Source of the DNA: a virus | Taxonomy: Duplodnaviria > Caudoviricetes | IMG/VR virus record: IMGVR_UViG_3300025103_000014 | Span: 1-58,649 of that record | Length of the DNA: 58,649 nucleotides | Reading direction: 5' to 3' (one strand) | In this document: positions 42,100-57,938 of the stretch, one piece after another | Position numbering within the stretch: the first letter of the stretch is position 1 | Layout: each line of letters opens with the position of its first letter | The notes under the pieces: model-generated | Database searches by the model: none | Told to the model about the DNA's origin: nothing | The model's input: only the letters and a program-made list of their open reading frames with translations | Made by a program: the position numbers and the translations under genes

Positions 42100-42128
42100 T
42101 TGACAAGAGATATATCGTATGGTATAAT
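42100..42128 (+). promoter_or_regulatory. Sigma70-type promoter with extended -10
   Basis: TTGACA-N17-TATAAT with TGG immediately before the -10. Confidence 0.9.
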
Positions 42129-46669: not shown

Positions 46670-46827
46670 ATTGCAACTCTGATTGGAAACTGATTGCAAC
46701 CTCTGATTGGAAACTGATTGCAACCTCTGATTGGAAACTGATTGCAACCTCTGATTGGAAACTGATTGCAACCTCTGATTGGAAATGGAAACTGATTGGA
46801 AACTGATTGCAACCTCTGATTGGAAAC
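46670..46827. repeat. Tandem repeat family A (24-bp unit TTGCAACCTCTGATTGGAAACTGA)
   Basis: About 5-6 units read directly. Confidence 0.95.
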
Positions 46828-46896
46828 AAAGATAAAAAGACCTGCATATCCTTTTTAAATAATAAAAGATAAAAAGACCTGTATATCCTTTTTAAA
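46828..46896. repeat. Repeat family B (AAAGATAAAAAGACCTGYATATCCTTTTTAAA), 2 copies
   Basis: The same unit recurs at 52.27, 53.63, 54.48, 55.3 and 55.65 kb. Confidence 0.95.
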
Positions 46897-47003
46897 GAAA
46901 AAACTTTTTTTATTTTTTTACACTTTGCTATTGACAAGTCAGTAAAGTATGGTATAATACTCATCAGTTACGAAACGAAACGCACAATGAATAGGAGTGC
47001 AAC

Positions 47004-47222
47004 ATGAACATCTATACAGGTTATGAAACAACTGCAAGAAAAATTAAAAAAGGTGAGTGGTTATATCGTGGTTATAGAATCAAGTTAAAAATGAATAAAC
47101 CATTATCTCAACTGCTCGGTGGTAGATTCACCTACTGGGAAATTGAAGGAATGAATAAGTCATTCTCACAACTCGGTGAAGCAAGAAGGTACATTGATAA
47201 AAAATTATCACAAGGTACTTGA
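47004..47222 (+). CDS. Early cassette hypothetical protein (basic)
   Basis: Leader RBS AGGAG; stop codon lies inside the next TTGACA. Confidence 0.75.
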   Translation: MNIYTGYETTARKIKKGEWLYRGYRIKLKMNKPLSQLLGGRFTYWEIEGMNKSFSQLGEARRYIDKKLSQGT

Positions 47223-47295
47223 CAAGCAAGTAAAAGTATGGTATAATACTCACGGTTACGAAACGAAACGCACAAAGAATAGGAGTGCAAAAAAC

Positions 47296-47508
47296 ATGAT
47301 AAAAATACTATGTAAAGAAACCAATGAGGTACATGAGTGGACAATATCTCAAGTGCTTGAGGAAATCAACCGAGAACGCTCGGACGAATGGACTGCATAC
47401 AACCATAACGATTGGCGAGATGGGTGGATGGAATGGGTAGAAGGGGGAGAGTTTTATACTCTATGCCTAGCACAAACCCTAAAAGATTCAGCAGAGGAAT
47501 TAAAGTAA
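47296..47508 (+). CDS. Early cassette hypothetical protein (Trp-rich)
   Basis: Start re-placed at ATG 47296 after the leader AGGAG. Confidence 0.75.
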   Translation: MIKILCKETNEVHEWTISQVLEEINRERSDEWTAYNHNDWRDGWMEWVEGGEFYTLCLAQTLKDSAEELK

Positions 47509-47509
47509 A

Positions 47510-47632
47510 ATGAACCAACAAATGAACAGACCAAAACCAAGAAGAATGTACGCTCCATTTTTATTCGTACTAGCGGTATGGACTTACACACTTGCCTACA
47601 TCTTTGAACTTTATATGAGGTACTCACAATGA
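47510..47632 (+). CDS. Small membrane peptide (40 aa)
   Basis: MNQQMNRPKPRRMYAPFLFVLAVWTYTLAYIF...; ATGA overlap with the next gene. Confidence 0.5.
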   Translation: MNQQMNRPKPRRMYAPFLFVLAVWTYTLAYIFELYMRYSQ

Positions 47633-47934
47633 AACACTTTAAGATTACAATAGGAATACGAGATGGGGACAACGAGTATATGGAAACTTGGGAGATGGAT
47701 AACCCCTGTTCAGGTTTTTTTGGGGAACTGCTCCCCGATTCAGACCCACATAACCGTACCGATATGGACAATAAGTTTCTTCTCAATCACTTTTTTGGAG
47801 AAGGTTTGTGTTTGGGCGAAGATGATGAGGGTAACGAATCCTTAGAAGCCACGGAAGATGAAGGTGGACGTTATTGGCTAGGATTTGGCGAAAGATTGGT
47901 GTGGATTGAAGGCATCGAGGAACTAAAACAATGA
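47629..47934 (+). CDS. Acidic hypothetical protein
   Basis: RBS GAGG; 101 aa. Confidence 0.7.
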   Translation: MKHFKITIGIRDGDNEYMETWEMDNPCSGFFGELLPDSDPHNRTDMDNKFLLNHFFGEGLCLGEDDEGNESLEATEDEGGRYWLGFGERLVWIEGIEELKQ

Positions 47935-48383
47935 AACAATGTACAAAGTGTAAAGGTACAAACATACAACAAGCGTTTGTCGGTTGGCATAACCTGAAAG
48001 AAGATACCATTGACGGAGAACGATACTACGAGAATCAATACTTTAATGCAGATGACGATGTTTACTTTTGCAAAGATTGTGATGAAACAGTAAATGTAGA
48101 GGAGGAGAATGAGCCAAAGGTAGCCGACACAGTGAACTACGAAGTTGGAGATAAAGTAAAGTTTCTTGTGGAGATAGAAAGAGGTATGACAACAACCGTA
48201 CTCAAAGATGCAATAGGAACTATTGCCAACATTGATGAAGATTTTGTCTATGTTACTATCCACGATGAAGATTGTGCAAAAGACTTGGCAGAGTGGGATG
48301 GGCAACTATACTTATCCAACACACCTGTTACAGATTTTGATAAATATGACTATGAAGGTTTAGATAGTATAGAAAAAAGATAG
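47931..48383 (+). CDS. Zinc-ribbon acidic protein
   Basis: CTKC...CKDC pair. Confidence 0.7.
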   Translation: MKQCTKCKGTNIQQAFVGWHNLKEDTIDGERYYENQYFNADDDVYFCKDCDETVNVEEENEPKVADTVNYEVGDKVKFLVEIERGMTTTVLKDAIGTIANIDEDFVYVTIHDEDCAKDLAEWDGQLYLSNTPVTDFDKYDYEGLDSIEKR

Positions 48384-48482
48384 TATAGAAAAAGTTGAGT
48401 AAGGTACTTGACAAGTAGGTAAAGACCTGCTATAATGCTTACAGTTACGAAACGAAAACGCTCACAGAATAGGAGAGCAACA

Positions 48483-49082
48483 ATGCCACACAGCCCAGAA
48501 TTATCTAACCGACTTGAAGTAGGGGAACAGACAGAACTATATGCAGACAACACCACTCTTATTGTGGGTGTTACCGAAGATGGCACTATCCAGATAGACA
48601 TAGATAAGTGCGATGGAAGTGAAAGTGATTCGCTAATTATCAATCCAGATAAAACAGTCGTCAATGCTCACCTTCCAGACCTAGAGGGAGAGAACTTACT
48701 CTCTGCTAATACTTATGTGCTAATGGGAATACTGCAAAAACTGTACGGTGGTGATTTTCACAAACTTATGGCTACTGTTCTTGATGAGTTTCAAAGTAAA
48801 CATGGTCTTGAACCTATGTGTGCTTTAGAATCACAATCAGGCAACTACAAAACAGACGAACAACTTGAGTGGTATAAGAACTTCAGTGCATTGTGGGAAC
48901 TAATGGAAGAAGATTGGGTGGATAACAACTGCTCAGAAATGCAAGTAGTAGTGTTAAATGATGGTGAAACTTACACAGGTTTGAAAGGTAGCAAGATTCT
49001 TACTATCCCCACCTACATTGACGAAAATGATGTTGATACTTATGTTAAAGACAACTACAAAGATGGGGTGGACATTCAATGA
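48483..49082 (+). CDS. Early cassette hypothetical protein
   Basis: Start re-placed at ATG 48483 after AGGAG. Confidence 0.75.
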   Translation: MPHSPELSNRLEVGEQTELYADNTTLIVGVTEDGTIQIDIDKCDGSESDSLIINPDKTVVNAHLPDLEGENLLSANTYVLMGILQKLYGGDFHKLMATVLDEFQSKHGLEPMCALESQSGNYKTDEQLEWYKNFSALWELMEEDWVDNNCSEMQVVVLNDGETYTGLKGSKILTIPTYIDENDVDTYVKDNYKDGVDIQ

Positions 49083-49090
49083 ACCTATTC

Positions 49091-49144
49091 AGTAGAGGCG
49101 GAGTCCTGCGTTGTGGGGATTGGCGTGGGCTTCGCTTCTGCTTT
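49091..49144 (+). terminator. Long G-U-rich RNA hairpin
   Basis: GTAGAGGCGGAGTCC pairs with GGGCTTCGCTTCTGC using 4 G-U pairs, so it forms on the plus strand only. Confidence 0.55.
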
Positions 49145-49385
49145 GATTGGAAACTGGTTGCAATGGTTGTAATGGTTGCAACTGATTGGAAACTAAAATG
49201 ACAACACTTCTACTACCATTTTTAATCTTCGGGATTGCTCCTGTTTTACTAATTGCTATAAATGATACTATGCGCGACTAAAAACTTTTTTAATTTTTTT
49301 ACATTTTGCTATTGACAAACTCGTAAATGATGCTATAATACTCACAGTTACGAAACGAAACGCACAAAGAATAGGAGTGCAACAA

Positions 49386-49823
49386 ATGACTACAGAACAA
49401 ACATACTGGAATGACAAGGGCAAGTATCAAAAAGAGTACGATGCCCTGTGGCTGAAACTTGTTCCATCTCAAGGCGAAGCGGATACTGTTCATGGTGAAA
49501 CATTAAGAGCAGTAAGCAGACTGTACTACGATGTTATGAATAACGGTGCGGGTAATGTTATCGAGTGGTCAGAAGGAAACTATGATAACGACTATGAAGA
49601 AACAACAGAAGTAAACTCTTACTTCCAACCACTTCTTAATCTTGTAGAAGCAAGAACAACAATAAATGTAGAAGCAATACTCATATCTTGCGTTAAAAAG
49701 AGTGGGCTTAATTGGTTTAATGGCGAAGAATGTGCAGAACTTGAAACAGTAATAGATGATGTAATGGAATATGTTATCGAAAAAGATAAAGAAATTACTG
49801 CAAGATACTTGACAAACAAGTAA
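49386..49823 (+). CDS. Acidic early protein, possibly DMP19/DUF4375-like DNA mimic
   Basis: LW.KLVPSQGEADTVHGE.LRA..RLYYD..NNG motif; acidic composition. Confidence 0.55.
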   Translation: MTTEQTYWNDKGKYQKEYDALWLKLVPSQGEADTVHGETLRAVSRLYYDVMNNGAGNVIEWSEGNYDNDYEETTEVNSYFQPLLNLVEARTTINVEAILISCVKKSGLNWFNGEECAELETVIDDVMEYVIEKDKEITARYLTNK

Positions 49824-49880
49824 ATGTATGGTATAATACTTACTCAACAACAACGCGCACAAGAATAGGAGTGCAAAACA

Positions 49881-50888
49881 ATGACTACGGAAACAACAAC
49901 AGAACAACCAAGAACAAAAGTATCTACGATAGTGGATAGGTTGTTCACACAACTAGAGGGTACAAGAACATCGTTCGATTCTTATATTAAGGATGTACCA
50001 ACACCAACAGAGGGAACTATTCTTGTTCGGTGGCAGAGGGATGGCAGAGGAACTCTTAAGGGCATAGAAGAAACTCCCGCAATTACAGTAACCAAAGAAG
50101 ATTTAGATGGTTTTGTTTTTGAGCAAGCAAGTAAAATAGAGAACAACACCGAATCAATATGCTTGTATCACTGGGGCAGAGTAGTAGCAGAAGATAAAGT
50201 AAAAAGGTTTGGCAGGAAAAGCACAGTAAGAGTTTATCTTGAACGAGCATACAAAGTACATTATGGCAGACATTCTTACAGCAAGATGAACAACATTCAA
50301 TTTGAACTACCAAATGATTCAGACATACATAGAATCGTGGTAGAGGTTAGTGGGTATGGGAAGGATGTAAAGAGAGCATTCCCTTTTAAAGATGTATCAC
50401 AATTACAAGACGCAATTACAAAGGCGGTTGCTTATACTTTTAAGAACTCTAAAGTGTTTGCTCCCTCACCAAAAGATAGTAGGAATAAGCACGAAGAACG
50501 CTCAATCACTGAACAGTGGGCTGAGGATATTTTAAGACATCGGGAGAAGCGTATGAAGTTAGATACAATCACACTAGAAGAACAACGAATGAGTGTGTTT
50601 GCAGAACAACTAATTGCATCGGGATTCATGCAAAAAAGATATGACTTATCTTACGAAGCAAAACCACTAACGGTTGAAGGTAAGGGTAAGTGTGAATCAG
50701 AAGGCAGAGCCATAAGAGCCGAGAAACAAACCGAACTGGGCTTAATCACAATAACCGTACAGGTTGATTCTGATGGAGAGTATCGTGCAGGGCTAGGAAT
50801 AAATGCCAGACATAACAACCGAATGCCGATGAAGGCAAACACGATTAAAGTGCAGAACTTAATAGATATGGCTACTTCAATAAAATGA
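49881..50888 (+). CDS. Early cassette hypothetical protein
   Basis: 335 aa ORF after the conserved leader. Confidence 0.8.
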   Translation: MTTETTTEQPRTKVSTIVDRLFTQLEGTRTSFDSYIKDVPTPTEGTILVRWQRDGRGTLKGIEETPAITVTKEDLDGFVFEQASKIENNTESICLYHWGRVVAEDKVKRFGRKSTVRVYLERAYKVHYGRHSYSKMNNIQFELPNDSDIHRIVVEVSGYGKDVKRAFPFKDVSQLQDAITKAVAYTFKNSKVFAPSPKDSRNKHEERSITEQWAEDILRHREKRMKLDTITLEEQRMSVFAEQLIASGFMQKRYDLSYEAKPLTVEGKGKCESEGRAIRAEKQTELGLITITVQVDSDGEYRAGLGINARHNNRMPMKANTIKVQNLIDMATSIK

Positions 50889-50927
50889 TAAAAACTCGCC
50901 CTGTGATTCAGAGTATAAAAGAATCCG

Positions 50928-50953
50928 AGTGGTAGGCGTAACCTACTATTTTT
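50928..50953 (+). terminator. Intrinsic terminator
   Basis: TGGTAGG-CGTAA-CCTACTA followed by a T run. Confidence 0.65.
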
Positions 50954-51011
50954 AAGAAAAAAGTTTAGTAAGGTACTTGACAAGTAAGTAAAGGTATGGT
51001 ATAATGCAGTT

Positions 51012-51147
51012 TGACAAGTGAATAGGGAGGCAGTCAATGGTCGTACCCCTAGTAAACCGTCCACCAACAAGGTATTTGAGGCGGTTCTTAATTGAACTAG
51101 ATAGATGGTACATACTTAAAGGCGAACGACTGCTTCCCTTTTTTTAA
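51012..51147 (+). ncRNA. Candidate structured small RNA, alternatively a 36-aa ORF (51037-51147) with self-sequestered RBS
   Basis: Has its own consensus promoter; 12-bp closing stem 51024-51035 / 51128-51139 followed by a T run; nested inner helices. Confidence 0.55.
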
Positions 51148-51238
51148 GAAAAAAGTTTAGTAAGGTACTTGACAAGTAAGTAAACACTTGGTATAATACT
51201 TACTCAACAATAAAGCACAAAGAATAGGAGTGCAAAAC

Positions 51239-51640
51239 ATGACACACACCAAACAAGACAGTGAATATGCTAGAGAACTTCTAGCCCTTAGCCAACGGCA
51301 AAAGGCAGAAGCAGAACTGAAACAACGACTCATAAATGATGCAGAGATTGTGGCTAAAGAAAAACAAAGAGCAGATTTGCATGGAGTTATTGCAGAGGCA
51401 ATAAATGATGTACACAATACTCAACGGTTTAGCAATTCCGACTTGATGGACATTCGAGAAATTGTTACAGACCGACTTATGAAAAATGGTTTGATGAACG
51501 AAGAAGAAAAAGATAAGTTTCTTCGTACTGTTCAGATTTTTGCTTGCAACGATAAAGATTGGGCGAAAAAAAGCCCAAGCAAGACAAAGAGCAAGAGCAG
51601 TTACTTGCCGAACGCAGAATCAGTAGATGGGAGATGGTGA
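51239..51640 (+). CDS. Early cassette hypothetical protein (coiled)
   Basis: ATG 51239 after AGGAG. Confidence 0.75.
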   Translation: MTHTKQDSEYARELLALSQRQKAEAELKQRLINDAEIVAKEKQRADLHGVIAEAINDVHNTQRFSNSDLMDIREIVTDRLMKNGLMNEEEKDKFLRTVQIFACNDKDWAKKSPSKTKSKSSYLPNAESVDGRW

Positions 51641-51644
51641 AAAC

Positions 51645-52076
51645 ATGGAAGCAAAACTTTTAACAGCAGGGCGGTACTTTGAAGAAGGTAACAAGAGAAC
51701 ACCACCGATGTCTATGGGCGTGTATCGGATGGTGCGTAACCTGTTAAAAAAGGCATACAAGGGTAGACCTGTACTTGGTGTAAAGGTTGTTATGCAAGAG
51801 GATGGTAACAGGATGTTAGAGCCAACGATAGCGTGGGAAGAAGGGCTTACCGACTGTAAATACTTCTTTTTGATGTTGCACAATGACGGCACTATCTACT
51901 CAATTTTTGGCAACCGAAAAGAGTTTTTAAGCATTTTTCCAGATGATGACATTGATGACTTTAGCCATGTAGACAAAGACAAAGAAGTAATGTTCGGACT
52001 ACCGCTTCCAAAGGATAGCCCAAGAATATGGGCAATGGACTGTGAACGATGTACAGCGATTTATATGTTAAAATGA
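51645..52076 (+). CDS. Hypothetical protein
   Basis: ATG 51645 after GGAG/GGTG. Confidence 0.7.
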   Translation: MEAKLLTAGRYFEEGNKRTPPMSMGVYRMVRNLLKKAYKGRPVLGVKVVMQEDGNRMLEPTIAWEEGLTDCKYFFLMLHNDGTIYSIFGNRKEFLSIFPDDDIDDFSHVDKDKEVMFGLPLPKDSPRIWAMDCERCTAIYMLK

Positions 52077-52225
52077 ATAATGTAGAGGCAATGCTGAGGA
52101 TGTACCAAAGAGCGAACCCCACACTTACAAGGGGTGAGTGCATTGAACTTATGAAAAAAAAGGAACGACACTTTCTTGGTTATGATATTAAACTCAAACC
52201 AAACAAGAAGCGAAAGAAACGCTGA
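52073..52225 (+). CDS. Small basic protein (50 aa)
   Basis: ATGA-coupled; ends KPNKKRKKR with the stop supplied by the family A repeat. Confidence 0.5.
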   Translation: MNNVEAMLRMYQRANPTLTRGECIELMKKKERHFLGYDIKLKPNKKRKKR

Positions 52226-52336
52226 TTGAGAGTGATTGGAAACTGATTGGAAACTGATTGGAAACAAAGATAAAAAGACCTGTATATCCTTTTTAAAAAT
52301 AAAAGAAGATAAAAAGACCTGTATATCCTTTTTAAA
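52223..52336. repeat. Family A (11-mer) plus family B x2 block
   Basis: TGATTGGAAAC x3 followed by two B units. Confidence 0.9.
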
Positions 52337-52446
52337 GAAAAAACTTTTTTAATTTTTTTAAGTTTATGTATTGACAAGTGAGTAAAAGATGGTATAATAC
52401 TTACCAGTTACGAAACACAACGCTCAATGAATAGGAGAGCAAAACA

Positions 52447-52914
52447 ATGACAACCGAAACAGCAACCAATTTTTCTACAAAAATAAACTACGCTCAACTT
52501 AACAAGCAATGGCAAGCCAATGTTACTAAGGCAAGGCAAAAAGTAACAGGATGGTACGGAAGAAGAATGGTCGAAAATCGTTCTCTTTACTTATCAGCAC
52601 AAAAAGATAATAACGAAGATTTTGATGTTGAACTATTTAGAAACGGCGGGGGGTATGAATCGGAGCAAGGAAACCCTATGGTTTTTACTCAAGAAGAAAT
52701 ATCTTGTTGCATTGAAGAAGGAAAGGCACACTTTTTAGTAAAAGAAAATGAATTAAACATCACAATCGAACAAGGAATGGATGGTGTTAAAGAACGAGAT
52801 AAAGCATACGGGCGTGGTAAACTTGGAGAAGTATTAGACTATGATGCAGAAGTATGCCATGTTAATTGTACAATCAAGAGCGATGGAACATTTAAGATAT
52901 GGATTGACGAGTAA
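52447..52914 (+). CDS. Early cassette hypothetical protein
   Basis: Leader with AGGAG; 155 aa. Confidence 0.8.
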   Translation: MTTETATNFSTKINYAQLNKQWQANVTKARQKVTGWYGRRMVENRSLYLSAQKDNNEDFDVELFRNGGGYESEQGNPMVFTQEEISCCIEEGKAHFLVKENELNITIEQGMDGVKERDKAYGRGKLGEVLDYDAEVCHVNCTIKSDGTFKIWIDE

Positions 52915-52993
52915 CCACTTGACAAGTAGGTAAACACTTGGTATAATACTTACCAGATACGAAACGAAACGCACAAGAATAGGAGTGCAAAAA

Positions 52994-53554
52994 ATGAACC
53001 GACTAACAATTAGATATGATGAAAGTGCAGAATCCCCAAGAGAAGAATGTTGTAATTTAGGTACTCTTGCTTGTTCTCACAGTAACTACAATATGTCTGA
53101 TAAAGACGTATCAATCGAAGATGCACCGAACCAAGATGATGATGATTATGTCATGCTCCCAGTTTATATGTATGAACATGGTGGTTGCACAATAAGCACT
53201 TCACCGTTCTCTTGTTCTTGGGATAGTGGTCAAATTGGGTGGATATGGTGCAGTTTTGAGAACGCTAAAAATCACTTACAGAATCCCGATGTTACTTATG
53301 AAATGATTGTTAAGTATCTAAAAGGCGAGATAGAAACATACGACACTTTTATTCGTGGTGATGTTTATGGTTTTGTACTTGAAGAATCCACTACTTGTGG
53401 GGATTGTAACCACACCGAATGGGAAGTAACCGACTCATGTTGGGGCTTCTTGGGAGATAACCATGTAGAGAACATGGCGGATTGTTTACCAGAAGAAGCA
53501 CACGAAGCACTGAAAGACATCGAAGTAGATAAGCCGATGTTGATTGGAAACTGA
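52994..53554 (+). CDS. Conserved acidic phage protein
   Basis: SPRE..NLG, LPVYMYEHGG, WDSGQIGW, GDVYGF and DSCWGF motifs. Confidence 0.8.
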   Translation: MNRLTIRYDESAESPREECCNLGTLACSHSNYNMSDKDVSIEDAPNQDDDDYVMLPVYMYEHGGCTISTSPFSCSWDSGQIGWIWCSFENAKNHLQNPDVTYEMIVKYLKGEIETYDTFIRGDVYGFVLEESTTCGDCNHTEWEVTDSCWGFLGDNHVENMADCLPEEAHEALKDIEVDKPMLIGN

Positions 53555-53697
53555 TTGGAAACTGATTGGAAACTGATTGGAAACTGATTGGAAACTGATT
53601 GGAAACTGATTGGAAACTGATTGGAAACAAAGATAAAAAGACCTGCATATCCTTTTTAAATAATAAAAGATAAAAAGACCTGTATATCCTTTTTAAA
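53541..53697. repeat. Family A 11-mer TGATTGGAAAC x8 plus family B x2
   Basis: Perfect tandem at 53541-53628. Confidence 0.95.
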
Positions 53698-53806
53698 GAA
53701 AAAACTTTTTTTATTTTTTTAAGTTTATGTATTGACAAACTCGTAAATGATGGTATAATACTTACCAGTTACGAAACGAAACGCACAAAGAATAGGAGTG
53801 CAAACA

Positions 53807-54112
53807 ATGACAGAACTAGATTTTGTAAAATCGGACAACATAGGCGGAACATCCCTAAAAGGTAGCGTAGAATGCTCTTACAGCGACATTGTGGCTGTAT
53901 TCGGAGAACCATCAGAGGGAACAGACAAGACGGACGCAGAGTGGGCTATAGAGTTTCCTTGTGGAACTGTAGCAACCCTTTACAACTGGAAGAATGGCGT
54001 AAACTATTGCGGGGCATACGGTACGCCAGTGGAGCAAATTACACAGTGGAACATCGGTGGGCATTTTGGGGCGGATTCTGTAGAACTTGTTAAGAAGGCA
54101 CTTGACAAGTAG
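53807..54112 (+). CDS. Conserved phage hypothetical protein
   Basis: GTSLKG...Y..IV..FGEP, DKTDAEW, ATLYNWK and WNIGG motifs. Confidence 0.8.
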   Translation: MTELDFVKSDNIGGTSLKGSVECSYSDIVAVFGEPSEGTDKTDAEWAIEFPCGTVATLYNWKNGVNYCGAYGTPVEQITQWNIGGHFGADSVELVKKALDK

Positions 54113-54176
54113 GTAAATACTTGCTATAATGTATACAGTTACGACACTACAACGCTCTAGAATAGGAGAGCAATAC

Positions 54177-54371
54177 ATGAAACAAAAAACCAAACAACCC
54201 GACACTTGCGTATTTTGCGGGAGTATGTCGTTAAGGTTACTAAAAGATAGAGCCACTAGCGACCCAATTTTAAGCCCCGAAGGCATGAAAATATATAGAT
54301 GTGGACGATGCTGTTCTATGAGCAATGAATACACTGTTGACATTAAAGTAGACGAATTGGAAACTAAATGA
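54177..54371 (+). CDS. Small zinc-ribbon protein
   Basis: CVFC...CGRC; ATG 54177 after AGGAG. Confidence 0.7.
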   Translation: MKQKTKQPDTCVFCGSMSLRLLKDRATSDPILSPEGMKIYRCGRCCSMSNEYTVDIKVDELETK

Positions 54372-54419
54372 CAACACTTCTACTACCATTTTTAATCTTC
54401 GGGATTGCTCCTGCAAAAA

Positions 54420-54587
54420 TGATTGCAAATGATTGCAAATGATTGCAAATGATTGCAAATGATTGCAAATGATTGCAAATGAAAGATAAAAAGACCTGTA
54501 TATCCTTTTTAAATAATAAAAGATAAAAAGACCTGTATATCCTTTTTAAATAATAAAAGATAAAAAGACCTGTATATCCTTTTTAAA
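54420..54587. repeat. Family A variant 10-mer GATTGCAAAT x6 plus family B x3
   Basis: Perfect tandem at 54421-54480. Confidence 0.95.
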
Positions 54588-54696
54588 GAAAAAACTTTTT
54601 TAATTTTTTTAAGTTTATGTATTGACAAACTCGTAAATGATGGTATAATACTTACCAGTTACGAAACGAAACGCACAAAGAATAGGAGTGCAAAAC

Positions 54697-55173
54697 ATGG
54701 AACGAATAACACACTATAAACAACTAGAAGGGGCAACAGTCGAGAGCGATAAAATGAACTTCAGCGAGGAAGTACACGCCCTAGCCCTACACTTGAACGA
54801 TGATACCGCAACACTTGACGAGGTAGAAAGATGGCTAGATAATGAGGATTATCTAGTATTTGATGATGAGGATGCCGACAAAAAAGCAGAGGAATATATT
54901 AGGAATACGGTATGGGGCTTCAATGCTGACTTTCTCTCTTGGTATTGCCCAGATGGAATAGAAGCGGAGCATATCACCGCCTTAAGGGGTGATTCTTGCG
55001 AGGGGTGCAACGAGGCACTGGTAGTCCTTGTGGAAGCAGGGCAAGGGATGGAGAAGTTTATCAGCGAGGCAATAAGTACCGATGGTCGTGGGCATTTTAT
55101 TAGTTTTTATGATGGCGAAGAAAACGAAGTAACATACAACGGCACAGATTATTATATTTACAGGATAAACTAA
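54697..55173 (+). CDS. Highly acidic conserved phage protein
   Basis: DGRGHFISFYDGEE.E...YIYRIN motif; Asp/Glu-rich. Confidence 0.8.
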   Translation: MERITHYKQLEGATVESDKMNFSEEVHALALHLNDDTATLDEVERWLDNEDYLVFDDEDADKKAEEYIRNTVWGFNADFLSWYCPDGIEAEHITALRGDSCEGCNEALVVLVEAGQGMEKFISEAISTDGRGHFISFYDGEENEVTYNGTDYYIYRIN

Positions 55174-55239: not shown

Positions 55240-56150
55240 CTGATTGGAAACTGATTGCAAACTGATTGCAAACTGATTGCAAACTGATTGCAAATGAAAG
55301 ATAAAAAGACCTGCATTTTTTAAAAATAAAAAAAGAAAAGAGTATCTGTATATCCTTTTAAAAATAAAAGAAGATAAAAAGACCTGCATATCCTTTTTAA
55401 AAATAAAAGAAGATAAAAAGACCTGCATATCCTTTTTAAAATACCCCCCAAATGGCTAAAAATAACGATACCCTCATTTTTGGGCTAAAAACAGGGCTTT
55501 CAGTAAAGCCCCTAGAATCGCCTGTACTGGCTTTGTTGGTGTGTAAATGACTCGTACATCGTTGACAGCAAGATATAGCATACAGGGCATTCTAGACCCC
55601 TTAAAAGGCAAGTGTTAAAATAGGCAAACTGTAGCCCCTAAATAATAAAAGATAAAAAGACCTGCATATCCTTTTTAAATAAAAGAAGATAAAAAGACCT
55701 GCATATCCTTTTTAAAAATAAAAGAAGATAAAAAGACCTGCATATCCTTTTTAAATAAAAGAAGATAAAAAGACCTGCATATCCTTTTTAAAAATAAAAG
55801 AAGATAAAAAGACCTGCATATCCTTTTTAATAATAAAAGATAAAAAGACCTGTATATCCTCTTAAAAAATAAAAGAAGATAAAAAGACCTGTATATCTTT
55901 TTAAAAATCTTACACTTTTTGAAAAAAAAATGCTAATTTTACCCCTTGCCCCCTTGACAAATGAGAAACACGCTTTTCAGCCTAAAAATGGCTATTTTTT
56001 TCGAGAATCGCCTGTACTGGCAGTATCGAAAAAAATAGACTCATGGGTCATTGACAGCAAGATAAGGCGTACAGGGCATTCTAGCCCCCTTTAAAGGCAA
56101 GCCAGACCAGAACCCCGTTTTTAGCCCAATAAAGGCGGTTTTTACCCCAT
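55240..56150. repeat. ~0.9 kb non-coding repeat complex (A x5, B x~11, two long hairpin repeats)
   Basis: A at 55240-55295; B at 55297-55440 and x7 at 55648-55905; hairpin repeats at 55512-55610 and 56004-56101. Confidence 0.9.
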
Positions 56151-56287
56151 ACTATATATACATAAAAAAAATAAAAAAAGATACAATAGACTACTTGACA
56201 ACGGCATAAATGACGATATAATAAAGAGCATAACAACAACGGACAACAGTCCACAAACCCCAACCCCCAGAATAGGAAACAAGAACA

Positions 56288-57253
56288 ATGGCTAAGAAAA
56301 ATAAACAAATGACGAACAACGAGATGTACCAAATGATTACCGATAGAGTGGTCAAAGCATTAGAAGCCGATATCATCCCGTGGGTACGACCATGGAGCGA
56401 AGAGGGCGGAGCAAGAAGTTTCCCCCGAAATGTAGCAAGCGGAAAAGCATACAACGGTATCAACACTTGGCTTCTATCTTTAATGGGCTACGCTTCTCCG
56501 TGGTGGCTAACCTACAAACAACTTCGAGCCATCGGCGGAACTGTTAAAGAAGGCGAAAAAGATAACACAAGCCCTGTAGTGTTCTGGAACTTTTTTAAGA
56601 CTAAAGATAAGACAACCAAGAAGGAAAAAGTAATCCCATTCATGAAACATAGTAACGCTTACAATATCGAGCAATGCGACATACCAGAAGCGGAACTGCA
56701 AAAACTTGCCAAGCGACTTGATAAACTTGCAGGTAAAAAAGTTGTAAAGACTGACAAAGACAACAACGAAAAAAACGCAGTTTGTGAAGCAACTATTCGG
56801 GCATATTTAGATGGTCAAAAAATCACAGTATTAGAAGGAAGCGCATCGTACAATTTTGCGAACGACAATATAAAAATGCCACCGCTTGATACATTCACAA
56901 CAAGCGAACACTACTACGCAACTTTTTACCATGAAGCGGTACACAGTACTGGTCATGAATCGCGCCTTAATCGAAAAATCCAAAACCAATTCGGTACGCC
57001 AGAATATGCAAGGGAAGAACTCACGGCGGAACTTGGAGCAAGTTTCCTATGTGGCATCACTGGTATAGATACGCAACCAGTAACCGAGAACCGCGATGCT
57101 TATATAAAGGGATGGCTTAAAGCAATAAAGAACGACAACAAGTGTATCGCCGTAGCAAGTAGCAAGGCAGGCAAGGCAAGCGATATGATTCTCGGTACAA
57201 CTCAAAAAGGCGATACGGTATACACGCCACGCAAAAAGAAAACAAAGAAGTAA
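56288..57253 (+). CDS. ardC: ArdC-family antirestriction protein (ssDNA-binding plus zincin-like domain)
   Basis: ITDRVV..LE....PW..PW, N..SGKAY.GIN, WLTYKQ, YYATFYHEAVHSTGH..RLNR, YAREEL.AELGA and YI.GWL motifs. Confidence 0.93.
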   Translation: MAKKNKQMTNNEMYQMITDRVVKALEADIIPWVRPWSEEGGARSFPRNVASGKAYNGINTWLLSLMGYASPWWLTYKQLRAIGGTVKEGEKDNTSPVVFWNFFKTKDKTTKKEKVIPFMKHSNAYNIEQCDIPEAELQKLAKRLDKLAGKKVVKTDKDNNEKNAVCEATIRAYLDGQKITVLEGSASYNFANDNIKMPPLDTFTTSEHYYATFYHEAVHSTGHESRLNRKIQNQFGTPEYAREELTAELGASFLCGITGIDTQPVTENRDAYIKGWLKAIKNDNKCIAVASSKAGKASDMILGTTQKGDTVYTPRKKKTKK

Positions 57254-57262
57254 AGACACAAG

Positions 57263-57288
57263 AAGCCCCCAAAAATGGGGGCTTTTTT
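57263..57288 (+). terminator. Intrinsic terminator (repeated at 57784-57809 and 58243-58269)
   Basis: AAGCCCCC-loop-GGGGGCTT followed by a T run. Confidence 0.9.
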
Positions 57289-57417
57289 AATTTAAAAAAA
57301 TCTAAAAAAAGATACAATAGACTACTTGACAACGGCATAAATGACGATATAATAAAGAGCATAACAACAACGGAGTACAGACACTCCACAACCCCAACCC
57401 CTGAAAGAGGTAAACAA

Positions 57418-57762
57418 ATGACCGAGCAACGACAACAACCAACAGCAAGCCACTACACGATAACAAACGAAAGCACAAATGCAATAGTAGGAATTGCAAG
57501 CGACATACCAAACCTGTACTATGTTCTTTGTTCGATGGCGATGCCCGATAGCATTCTGCAAGATGAACTAAGAATAACATACGGCGGTATGTGTATCGCT
57601 TGCCATGAAACCGCAGATACACTATGTGAGCATTTTCGACAGGAAGCGGTAGAAGCACAACAACAACAACCAGAAGAGGAAACCATCGAAGATATCACAG
57701 CCGAGTACGAGCAAGAACTAGACGCTCAACTTGCAGATTTTTACGAGGACGATTTTAGATAA
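57418..57762 (+). CDS. Acidic early protein
   Basis: RBS GAGG; very acidic C-terminus. Confidence 0.75.
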   Translation: MTEQRQQPTASHYTITNESTNAIVGIASDIPNLYYVLCSMAMPDSILQDELRITYGGMCIACHETADTLCEHFRQEAVEAQQQQPEEETIEDITAEYEQELDAQLADFYEDDFR

Positions 57763-57938
57763 ACAACAACCCAGAACACGAAGAAGCCCCCAAAAATGGG
57801 GGCTTTTTTAATGTAAAAAAAATGTAAAAAAGATACAATACACTACTTGACAACGGCATAAATGACGATATAATAAAGAGCATAACAACAACGGAGTACA
57901 GACACTCCACAACCCCAACCCCTGAAAGAGGTAAACAA

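Follow-up and report, generated by a model that had tools for sequence, protein, structure and literature searches.

The early region of the phage genome analysed here contains a 192-bp unit, cassette A, which we interpret with moderate confidence as a recombination-mobile, stand-alone early unit that most likely specifies a non-coding RNA of about 134 nt within a PeSL-like region. The feature itself is real and non-random. Judged from its sequence, it is predicted to be an independent small-RNA unit, with promoter and terminator less than 250 nt apart and no credible ORF. A first-pass annotation had proposed that the cassette carries either a self-paired RNA of the 6S or decoy type or a micro-ORF whose ribosome-binding site is locked, as in type I toxin mRNAs. 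The self-paired RNA unit with its buried SD withstood the analysis, but the 6S and type I toxin families did not, and the repeated-promoter array in which the unit lies had been missed.

The window, that is, the whole stretch of DNA analysed, comprises 58,649 bp and is an entire virus record with a completeness of 98% according to the CheckV estimate; its source is an uncultured marine siphovirus-like phage with a near-complete genome. The genome encodes a terminase, a portal, a major head protein, tail fibres, a helicase, a primase-like protein and a family-A DNA polymerase (PolA), together with an ArdC-like anti-restriction protein (56288-57253), as assigned from 70 protein queries (20 against PHROGs and 50 against Pfam, with some ORFs in both). 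No tRNA or tmRNA genes were found. No cultured phage is close: the portal was below 60% identity in all 498 records matched, and megablast and blastn searches of a 2.5-kb region against 50,697 phage records gave no match. Parts of the locus are contained in 24 public runs, all of which are marine metagenomes and none of which is an RNA data set. Searches of IMG/VR with the neighbouring genes returned no relatives, the relatives found by portal (at most 96% identity) were fragments without the early region, and the methyltransferase relatives (identity at most 57%) contained no similar cassette. Searching metagenome contigs with the gene upstream of cassette A yielded three relatives, L062, L064 and L063, in which that gene shows 90%, 91% and 69% amino acid identity, respectively; L064 is nearly identical to L062 in sequence and is cut short. 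Outside the early region, an extra consensus promoter lies at 42100-42128, 3' of the DNA polymerase block and upstream of a small lipoprotein-like ORF, and it is kept in a further relative with 96% portal identity (L061, record G004, ~1390-1350, minus strand).

The first-pass annotation had described cassette A as an insulated unit, and each element of this promoter-to-terminator arrangement, all on the plus strand, was found where it had been placed. The proposed upstream terminator corresponds to a terminator-like hairpin (50927-50951; -13.5 kcal/mol, z -2.49) with a T-run, which extends to 50953 and belongs to the upstream 335-aa gene (49881-50888). The flanking direct repeats, previously given as about 40 bp in a string one A short within an A6 run, are a perfect 44 nt long and contain the T-run, an A-rich upstream element, the -35 box and part of the spacer. 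The two copies (50949-50992 and 51141-51184) stand 192 nt apart. A 35-mer of the repeat occurs exactly at 50958 and 51150 and a third time, with 2 mismatches, at 48389, whereas the number of matches expected by chance was 0 (100 shuffles). The promoter (50977-51005) has the form TTGACA-N17-TATAAT, with an extended -10 TG in the spacer and 12/12 hexamer matches, in full agreement with the consensus promoter first reported.

Behind the -10 box lies a class-specific region of 17 nt, GCAGTTTGACAAGTGAA (51006-51022), which stands in place of the standard coding leader, has one exact occurrence in the window, is absent from all coding cassettes and is present in the two sister cassettes B and C described below. 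It contains a GC-rich discriminator, a feature of stable-RNA promoters, as well as a diverged -35 box, the third copy of that element. The predicted RNA of about 134 nt would extend from 51013 to 51146, the start being placed by spacing from the -10 box and the end by the T-run. Its 5' part includes the 5' arm of a closing helix (51024-51035) with an SD-like GGGAGG, followed by a 36-codon open frame (51037-51147) that probably encodes no functional protein. The 3' arm of the helix (51128-51139) together with the anticipated T-run, which proved to be a T7 at 51139-51145, forms an intrinsic-terminator-like end (51128-51145). The next consensus promoter, a standard coding leader and the ATG of the following 133-aa gene (51239-51640) occupy 51169-51241.

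Cassette A is one element of a larger array. The early region (46931-54649) contains 12 perfect sigma-70 consensus promoters, all on the plus strand, 11 of which carry one stereotyped leader and ORFs of 64-335 aa. This standard leader follows the pattern ACTYAC..ACGAAACGAAACGCWC..GAATAGGAGWGCAA..ATG and gives a 5'UTR of about 45 nt. There are 11 such leaders in the window (46959-54699) and 14 more in L062 and L063, and all 25 stand before ORFs, including a 27-aa hydrophobic one. This micro-ORF (MTTLLLPFLIFGIAPVLLIAIND..) is found at 49198-49281 in the window, immediately 3' of a repeat array, with a partial second copy from 54369, and at 1860 in L062, where it has the standard promoter and leader.

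Within the standard leader, a 4-bp hairpin (GCAC/GUGC or GCUC/GAGC) presents the SD AGGAG in its loop; the pairing of this hairpin is kept in 96/96 cells, with one pair varying between A-U (13), U-A (10) and G.U (1); a score as high was reached by 0/500 shuffles. As the standard leaders are paralogues, the A-U/U-A swap may represent one inherited event. The hairpin may act as a common translation-enhancing or regulatory element. Searches with the standard leader gave 0 matches in IMG/VR and 2 chance matches in GTDB genome contigs, and the promoter 15-mer gave 119 matches in IMG/VR, each single and unrelated.

Several other repeated elements accompany these promoters. A second promoter type (TTGACAACGGCATAAATGACGATATAAT) occurs in three identical copies at 56195, 57326 and 57847, each with a C-rich leader, the copy at 56195 lying upstream of the ArdC-like gene. 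Tandem arrays of 10-11-nt repeats (CTGATTGGAAA, CTGATTGCAAA and AAATGATTGC; 4-13 copies) are located just 5' of one promoter subclass, at 46670-46827, 52222-52265, 53541-53628, 54417-54482 and 55240-55294; their helical-turn phasing suggests curved DNA or iterated regulator-binding sites. AT-rich repeats of 37-39 nt (AAGATAAAAAGACCTGTATATCCTTTTTAAA; 2-7 copies) are placed between the short arrays and the promoters, at 46823-46903, 52267-52343, 53624-53704, 54478-54594, 55298-55443 and 55640-55908.

Folding analysis supports a self-paired RNA of about 134 nt as the predicted product of the unit, in line with the first-pass annotation. Its minimum free energy (MFE) is -40.2 kcal/mol (z -3.18), and 0/200 dinucleotide shuffles were as stable. 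When the initial 134 nt were compared for all 12 early promoters, cassette A had by a wide margin the most stable fold (-40.2 vs -13.4 to -26.0 kcal/mol); two coding cassettes likewise reach z values of about -2.8 in this comparison. The closing helix between 51024-51035 and 51128-51139 was recovered as 12 bp including one G.U pair, with ensemble pair probabilities of 0.91-1.00, and the SD is indeed buried in it. At its 5' end the predicted RNA would be purine-rich and single-stranded; its body would be compact and its 3' end rich in U.

The inner helices are less certain. All three helices proposed for a rod-like RNA exist, but the rod scores -31.0 kcal/mol, against the MFE of -40.2 kcal/mol, which uses other inner pairs and is a branched fold rather than a rod with a central bubble. 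With the rod 9 kcal/mol less stable than the MFE fold, the closing helix is the one secure element. These results bear directly on the suggestion that the RNA is a 6S-like decoy, in which a rod with a bubble would imitate an open promoter and tie up the sigma-70 holoenzyme of the host. The rod fold is possible and a strong early promoter drives the RNA, yet the MFE structure argues against such a decoy, and the phage itself relies on sigma-70 promoters for its early genes. 6S RNAs are typically about 180-200 nt long, and the cassette A RNA is, at about 134 nt, well below that length. No Rfam 6S match was obtained even at E<=10, so the Rfam/Infernal check of 6S membership was negative, and we regard the decoy as extremely improbable. 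More generally, Rfam searches of the window at the gathering score gave 0 matches and those of L062 and L063 at E<=1 nothing usable; at the locus itself, only two weak, unrelated matches, both on the minus strand, appeared at E<=10.

Whether the RNA is also a message was assessed from its open frame. The 36-aa ORF noted at the outset is present at 51037-51147, but the micro-ORF alternative was weakened by its codon usage, its stop codon and the failure to find a homologue. Under this alternative, the RNA would be an mRNA for a 36-aa basic peptide, MVVPL...LPFF, translatable only while nascent, before the 3' arm sequesters the SD; the lock would limit synthesis of a potent early peptide even though the promoter is very strong. 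The arrangement of the start region is consistent with this possibility: GGAGG lies 6 nt 5' of the ATG, aligned with real gene starts, and the frame is open over 36 codons. In cassettes B and C, too, an SD-like tract precedes a start codon and a frame of 32-33 codons, so that all three cassettes retain a purine tract, a start and a frame of 32-36 codons, features that a pure RNA would not need. In addition, the phage encodes at least one real micro-protein, the 27-aa one.

The composition of the frame points in the opposite direction. In composition-matched shuffles, the ATG is followed by an open frame of this length 12.3% of the time. The cassette A frame has a codon log-likelihood of 0.001 per codon (B, -0.10; C, 0.08), compared with 0.25 +/- 0.10 for real 36-codon windows of early genes (n=201) and -0.05 +/- 0.13 for spurious open frames (n=355), although such statistics are weak over 36 codons. 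Cassette A falls at the 0.5th percentile of the real windows, while its score is equalled or exceeded by 31% of the spurious frames; the established 27-aa micro-ORF itself scores only 0.077, and with sequences this short the arguments against a peptide carry moderate weight. The stop codon of the 36-aa ORF consists of the last T of the T-run plus AA, and the frame in B extends through its terminator into the next promoter. Because the stop in A overlaps the end of the U-run and the frame in B passes the terminator, terminated transcripts would be non-stop. Furthermore, the real micro-ORF has the standard leader and not that of cassette A, of the 3 runs that cover position 51029, 2 carry a variant, described below, with a weaker SD, and a phmmer search of the 36-aa peptide against 1.84 billion representative proteins gave 0 matches. 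We therefore consider a locked micro-gene possible but unlikely.

The related comparison with type I toxins fared no better. In type I toxin mRNAs such as hok, tisB and aapA1, long-distance pairing between the 5' and 3' ends keeps the full-length RNA translationally locked, and the cassette A RNA resembles them in that its 3' end pairs with the SD region. However, the peptide MVVPLVNRPPTRYLRRFLIELDRWYILKGERLLPFF shows, by inspection, charged residues throughout and no membrane-spanning stretch, no minus-strand promoter-like site was found within 50950-51190 from which an antisense RNA could start, and the codon usage looks like that of non-coding sequence. Moreover, cassette A lies in the early region of a virulent-type phage and not in an addiction locus. 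Membership of the type I toxins, which the first-pass annotation had brought to mind, was accordingly not supported.

Returning to the reading of cassette A as a small-RNA module, the relatives supplied two sister cassettes. In L062, cassette A is present at the equivalent place and the following gene differs, the 133-aa gene being absent; L063 is without cassette A, and a 120-aa gene cassette occupies the place. A 107-nt cassette B was found in L062 and L064 (L062 2726-2880) and a cassette C of about 205 nt in L063 (1813-2056); each is placed between the 145-aa and 335-aa genes, an interval with no extra unit in the window. Both share their promoter and 17-nt start (GCRGTTTGACAAGTGAA) with A and carry unrelated cargoes, and both end in a G-tract/C-tract hairpin followed by U6. 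The fold of B reaches -35.2 kcal/mol (z -3.0; 1/200 shuffles as good) and that of C -59 kcal/mol (z -1.84; 11/200 shuffles as good). The shared start, fold and terminator end indicate that A, B and C form a small class of short RNA-type modules beside the protein modules, for which TATAATGCRGTTTGACAAGTGAA is the search string to find further members. The special leader gave 0 matches in IMG/VR and 0 in GTDB genome contigs, and the three cargoes showed no DNA similarity at E<=1 to the 50,697 phage records. Three other identities for the unit were considered and rejected. A MITE-like element does not fit a single copy with no target-site duplication seen and with ends that differ among A, B and C; a replication-origin primer does not fit a presence and position that vary among relatives; and the bases similar to a BoxA-like antitermination signal lie upstream of the likely transcription start.

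Each genome examined has at least one member of the class: A in the window, A and B in L062, and C in L063. This distribution could also be expected of a control element comparable to lambda PR'-tR', in which a strong constitutive promoter is followed within about 200 nt by a terminator and yields a short, abundant RNA, the lambda 6S RNA. The promoter and initial region would then be an antiterminator loading or pause site, or a ribosome positioned on the 5' arm would keep the helix from forming, allowing read-through on demand, and the short RNA would be the default product. That the shared part of the cassettes is promoter-proximal and the terminator part variable agrees with this arrangement, as does the second TTGACA box in the leader. 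On the other hand, a separate promoter of equal strength, 25 nt downstream, serves the next gene, so that read-through would add little; the position of the unit differs between relatives; and inspection revealed no good -10-like pause element in the initial region. No Q-like, N-like or sigma family was detected among the 70 protein queries, although most early proteins are ORFans and a novel antiterminator could still be among them. Overall, we judge a control element of this kind very unlikely.

Comparison between the window and L062 revealed near-perfect identity of the unit. Over 50911-51184, only 1 of 274 nt differs (50987, in the promoter spacer), and the cargo is identical in 124/124 aligned columns, whereas the upstream gene differs at 58/1008 positions (5.8%); the Poisson probability of at most one difference in 274 nt is 2.4e-6. 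This identity may reflect selection or recent transfer of the module. As the neighbouring segments are mosaic (85-96% identity), transfer is plausible, and the identity was not taken as proof of constraint.

Population variants were examined by comparing contigs of four runs at the locus (X4, X6, X7 and X10), of which X4, X6 and X7 cover the cargo. The cargo is present in all three, with 0, 2 and 1 differences, respectively. The variant 51029 G>A (X6 and X7) converts the G.U pair with 51134 to A-U and reduces GGGAGG to the weaker GGGAAG; the variant 51035 C>T (X6) converts the C-G pair with 51128 to U.G. Both changes fall within the 5' arm of the closing helix, upstream of the ATG, and both keep the pairing, although by our estimate about half of such stem transitions would do so by chance. 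Both variants are one-sided transitions, and no compensatory double change occurred among the variants of X4, X6 and X7. One X7 contig connects position 51140 with 50949 through the 44-nt repeat, with a depth of 7.7 compared with 3.7 in the flanks. The X7 population may thus carry a tandem duplication of the 192-bp unit; alternatively, the junction may be a de Bruijn-graph artefact or derive from a second genome with the module.

These data also bear on a more modest explanation, in which the cargo is an oversized PeSL-type stem-loop serving as terminator or insulator behind a duplicated promoter, so that the RNA would be made as a functionless by-product of module shuffling. PeSL polyG/polyC stem-loops, as described in PMC2839356, terminate next to strong early promoters. 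At 5073-5180 in L062, two promoters separated by only about 50 nt enclose a truncated leader, resembling an empty module after recombination, and such a nearly empty unit is consistent with recombination leaving junk. Cassette B, moreover, comes after a gene without its own terminator. Against this explanation, the gene upstream of cassette A already has a terminator, and the 92-nt structured interior far exceeds what termination needs. In addition, all three units share the dedicated 17-nt start, which never occurs in coding cassettes, and the unit is intact in the window, in L062 and in three runs and may be duplicated in X7. A functionless by-product consequently appears rather unlikely.

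Under the preferred reading, that of a mobile small-RNA module, the consensus sigma-70 promoter would fire into about 134 nt of cargo whose 5' and 3' ends pair in the 12-bp, G/C-rich helix, followed by U7. As the closing helix adjoins U7, it would double as an intrinsic terminator, and the product would be a stable, abundant small RNA, most likely non-coding. The unit would be one module of a PeSL-like array in which near-identical promoter sequences border each early module, and homologous recombination between these promoters would insert, delete, duplicate and exchange modules. Such promoter-to-promoter recombination would explain the 44-bp direct repeats. The 17-nt start would mark RNA-type modules, replacing the 45-nt coding leader. 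We infer from the sequence the transcription of the unit, its 5' and 3' ends, its non-coding status and a role in trans, whether in host takeover, anti-defence or regulation. The variable presence of the unit in close relatives and its location in an early accessory region near an ArdC-like gene would fit a host-takeover or anti-defence accessory. Complementarity of the cargo to the phage's own sequence was at chance level in a blastn-short search (best match 12 nt, E 0.38).

A more specific extension would treat A, B and C as a new class of mobile RNA morons, each with the constant promoter, a constant transcribed handle of about 10 nt (GACAAGUGAA) and an interchangeable structured body unrelated to the others. 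Promoter-to-promoter swapping would exchange the bodies, a common phage or host factor would read the handle, and the bodies would be decoys or guides against host systems, for example in RNA-based anti-defence. This extension we consider doubtful.

The nearest precedent for the shuffling mechanism is found in T4-type phages, in which PeSL cassettes consisting of repeated strong sigma-70 promoters and stem-loop terminators mediate module shuffling in variable regions (Arbiol et al. 2010, PMC2839356; Comeau et al. 2014, PMC4122927). As far as these accounts describe them, three features are shared with the present array: many near-identical sigma-70 early promoters of consensus type, AT-rich in their upstream part (12, plus 3 of the second type at 56195-57847); G-tract/C-tract stem-loop terminators, which A, B, C and the upstream gene possess and not every module does; and a variable early region rich in ORFans, in which relatives differ by whole repeat-bounded modules. 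However, the genome here is that of a 58.6-kb siphovirus-like phage and not a T4-type myovirus, the sequences are unrelated, the repeated module also includes a fixed 45-nt 5'UTR, and cassette A carries as cargo a structured, ORF-poor RNA that has a leader of its own. A word search of PMC2839356 found no mention of noncoding or small-RNA cargo, ORF-less modules, tandem duplication or direct repeats. Given the siphovirus-like genes and the lack of any DNA match to the 50,697 phage records, the PeSL resemblance is a mechanistic analogy and not family membership.

Short RNAs of this type have a second parallel in virulent Pseudomonas phages, where promoter-proximal terminators yield abundant RNAs of 71-141 nt, such as the 71-nt and 141-nt RNAs of phiKZ (Putzeys et al. 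2024, PMC10914365). In the parts of that account available, these likewise have promoter and terminator within 250 nt, give a predominant short transcript and are of unknown function. They were mapped experimentally and lie mostly in 5'UTRs, whereas the cassette A RNA is predicted and belongs to a separate module with direct-repeat flanks and the next gene's own promoter behind it.

Taken together, module shuffling through promoter-terminator repeats, known in T4-type phages with protein ORFans, appears here in an unrelated marine siphovirus-like lineage, and for some modules, distinguished by a leader of their own, the cargo seems to be a structured RNA and not a gene. The two leader types also offer a contrast in translation control: the 25 coding leaders present the SD in a hairpin loop, whereas cassette A locks it in a 12-bp helix. 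If the RNAs are real and functional, the early accessory regions of phages would trade RNA effectors as well as proteins, and gene-centred annotation would miss such RNA modules completely.
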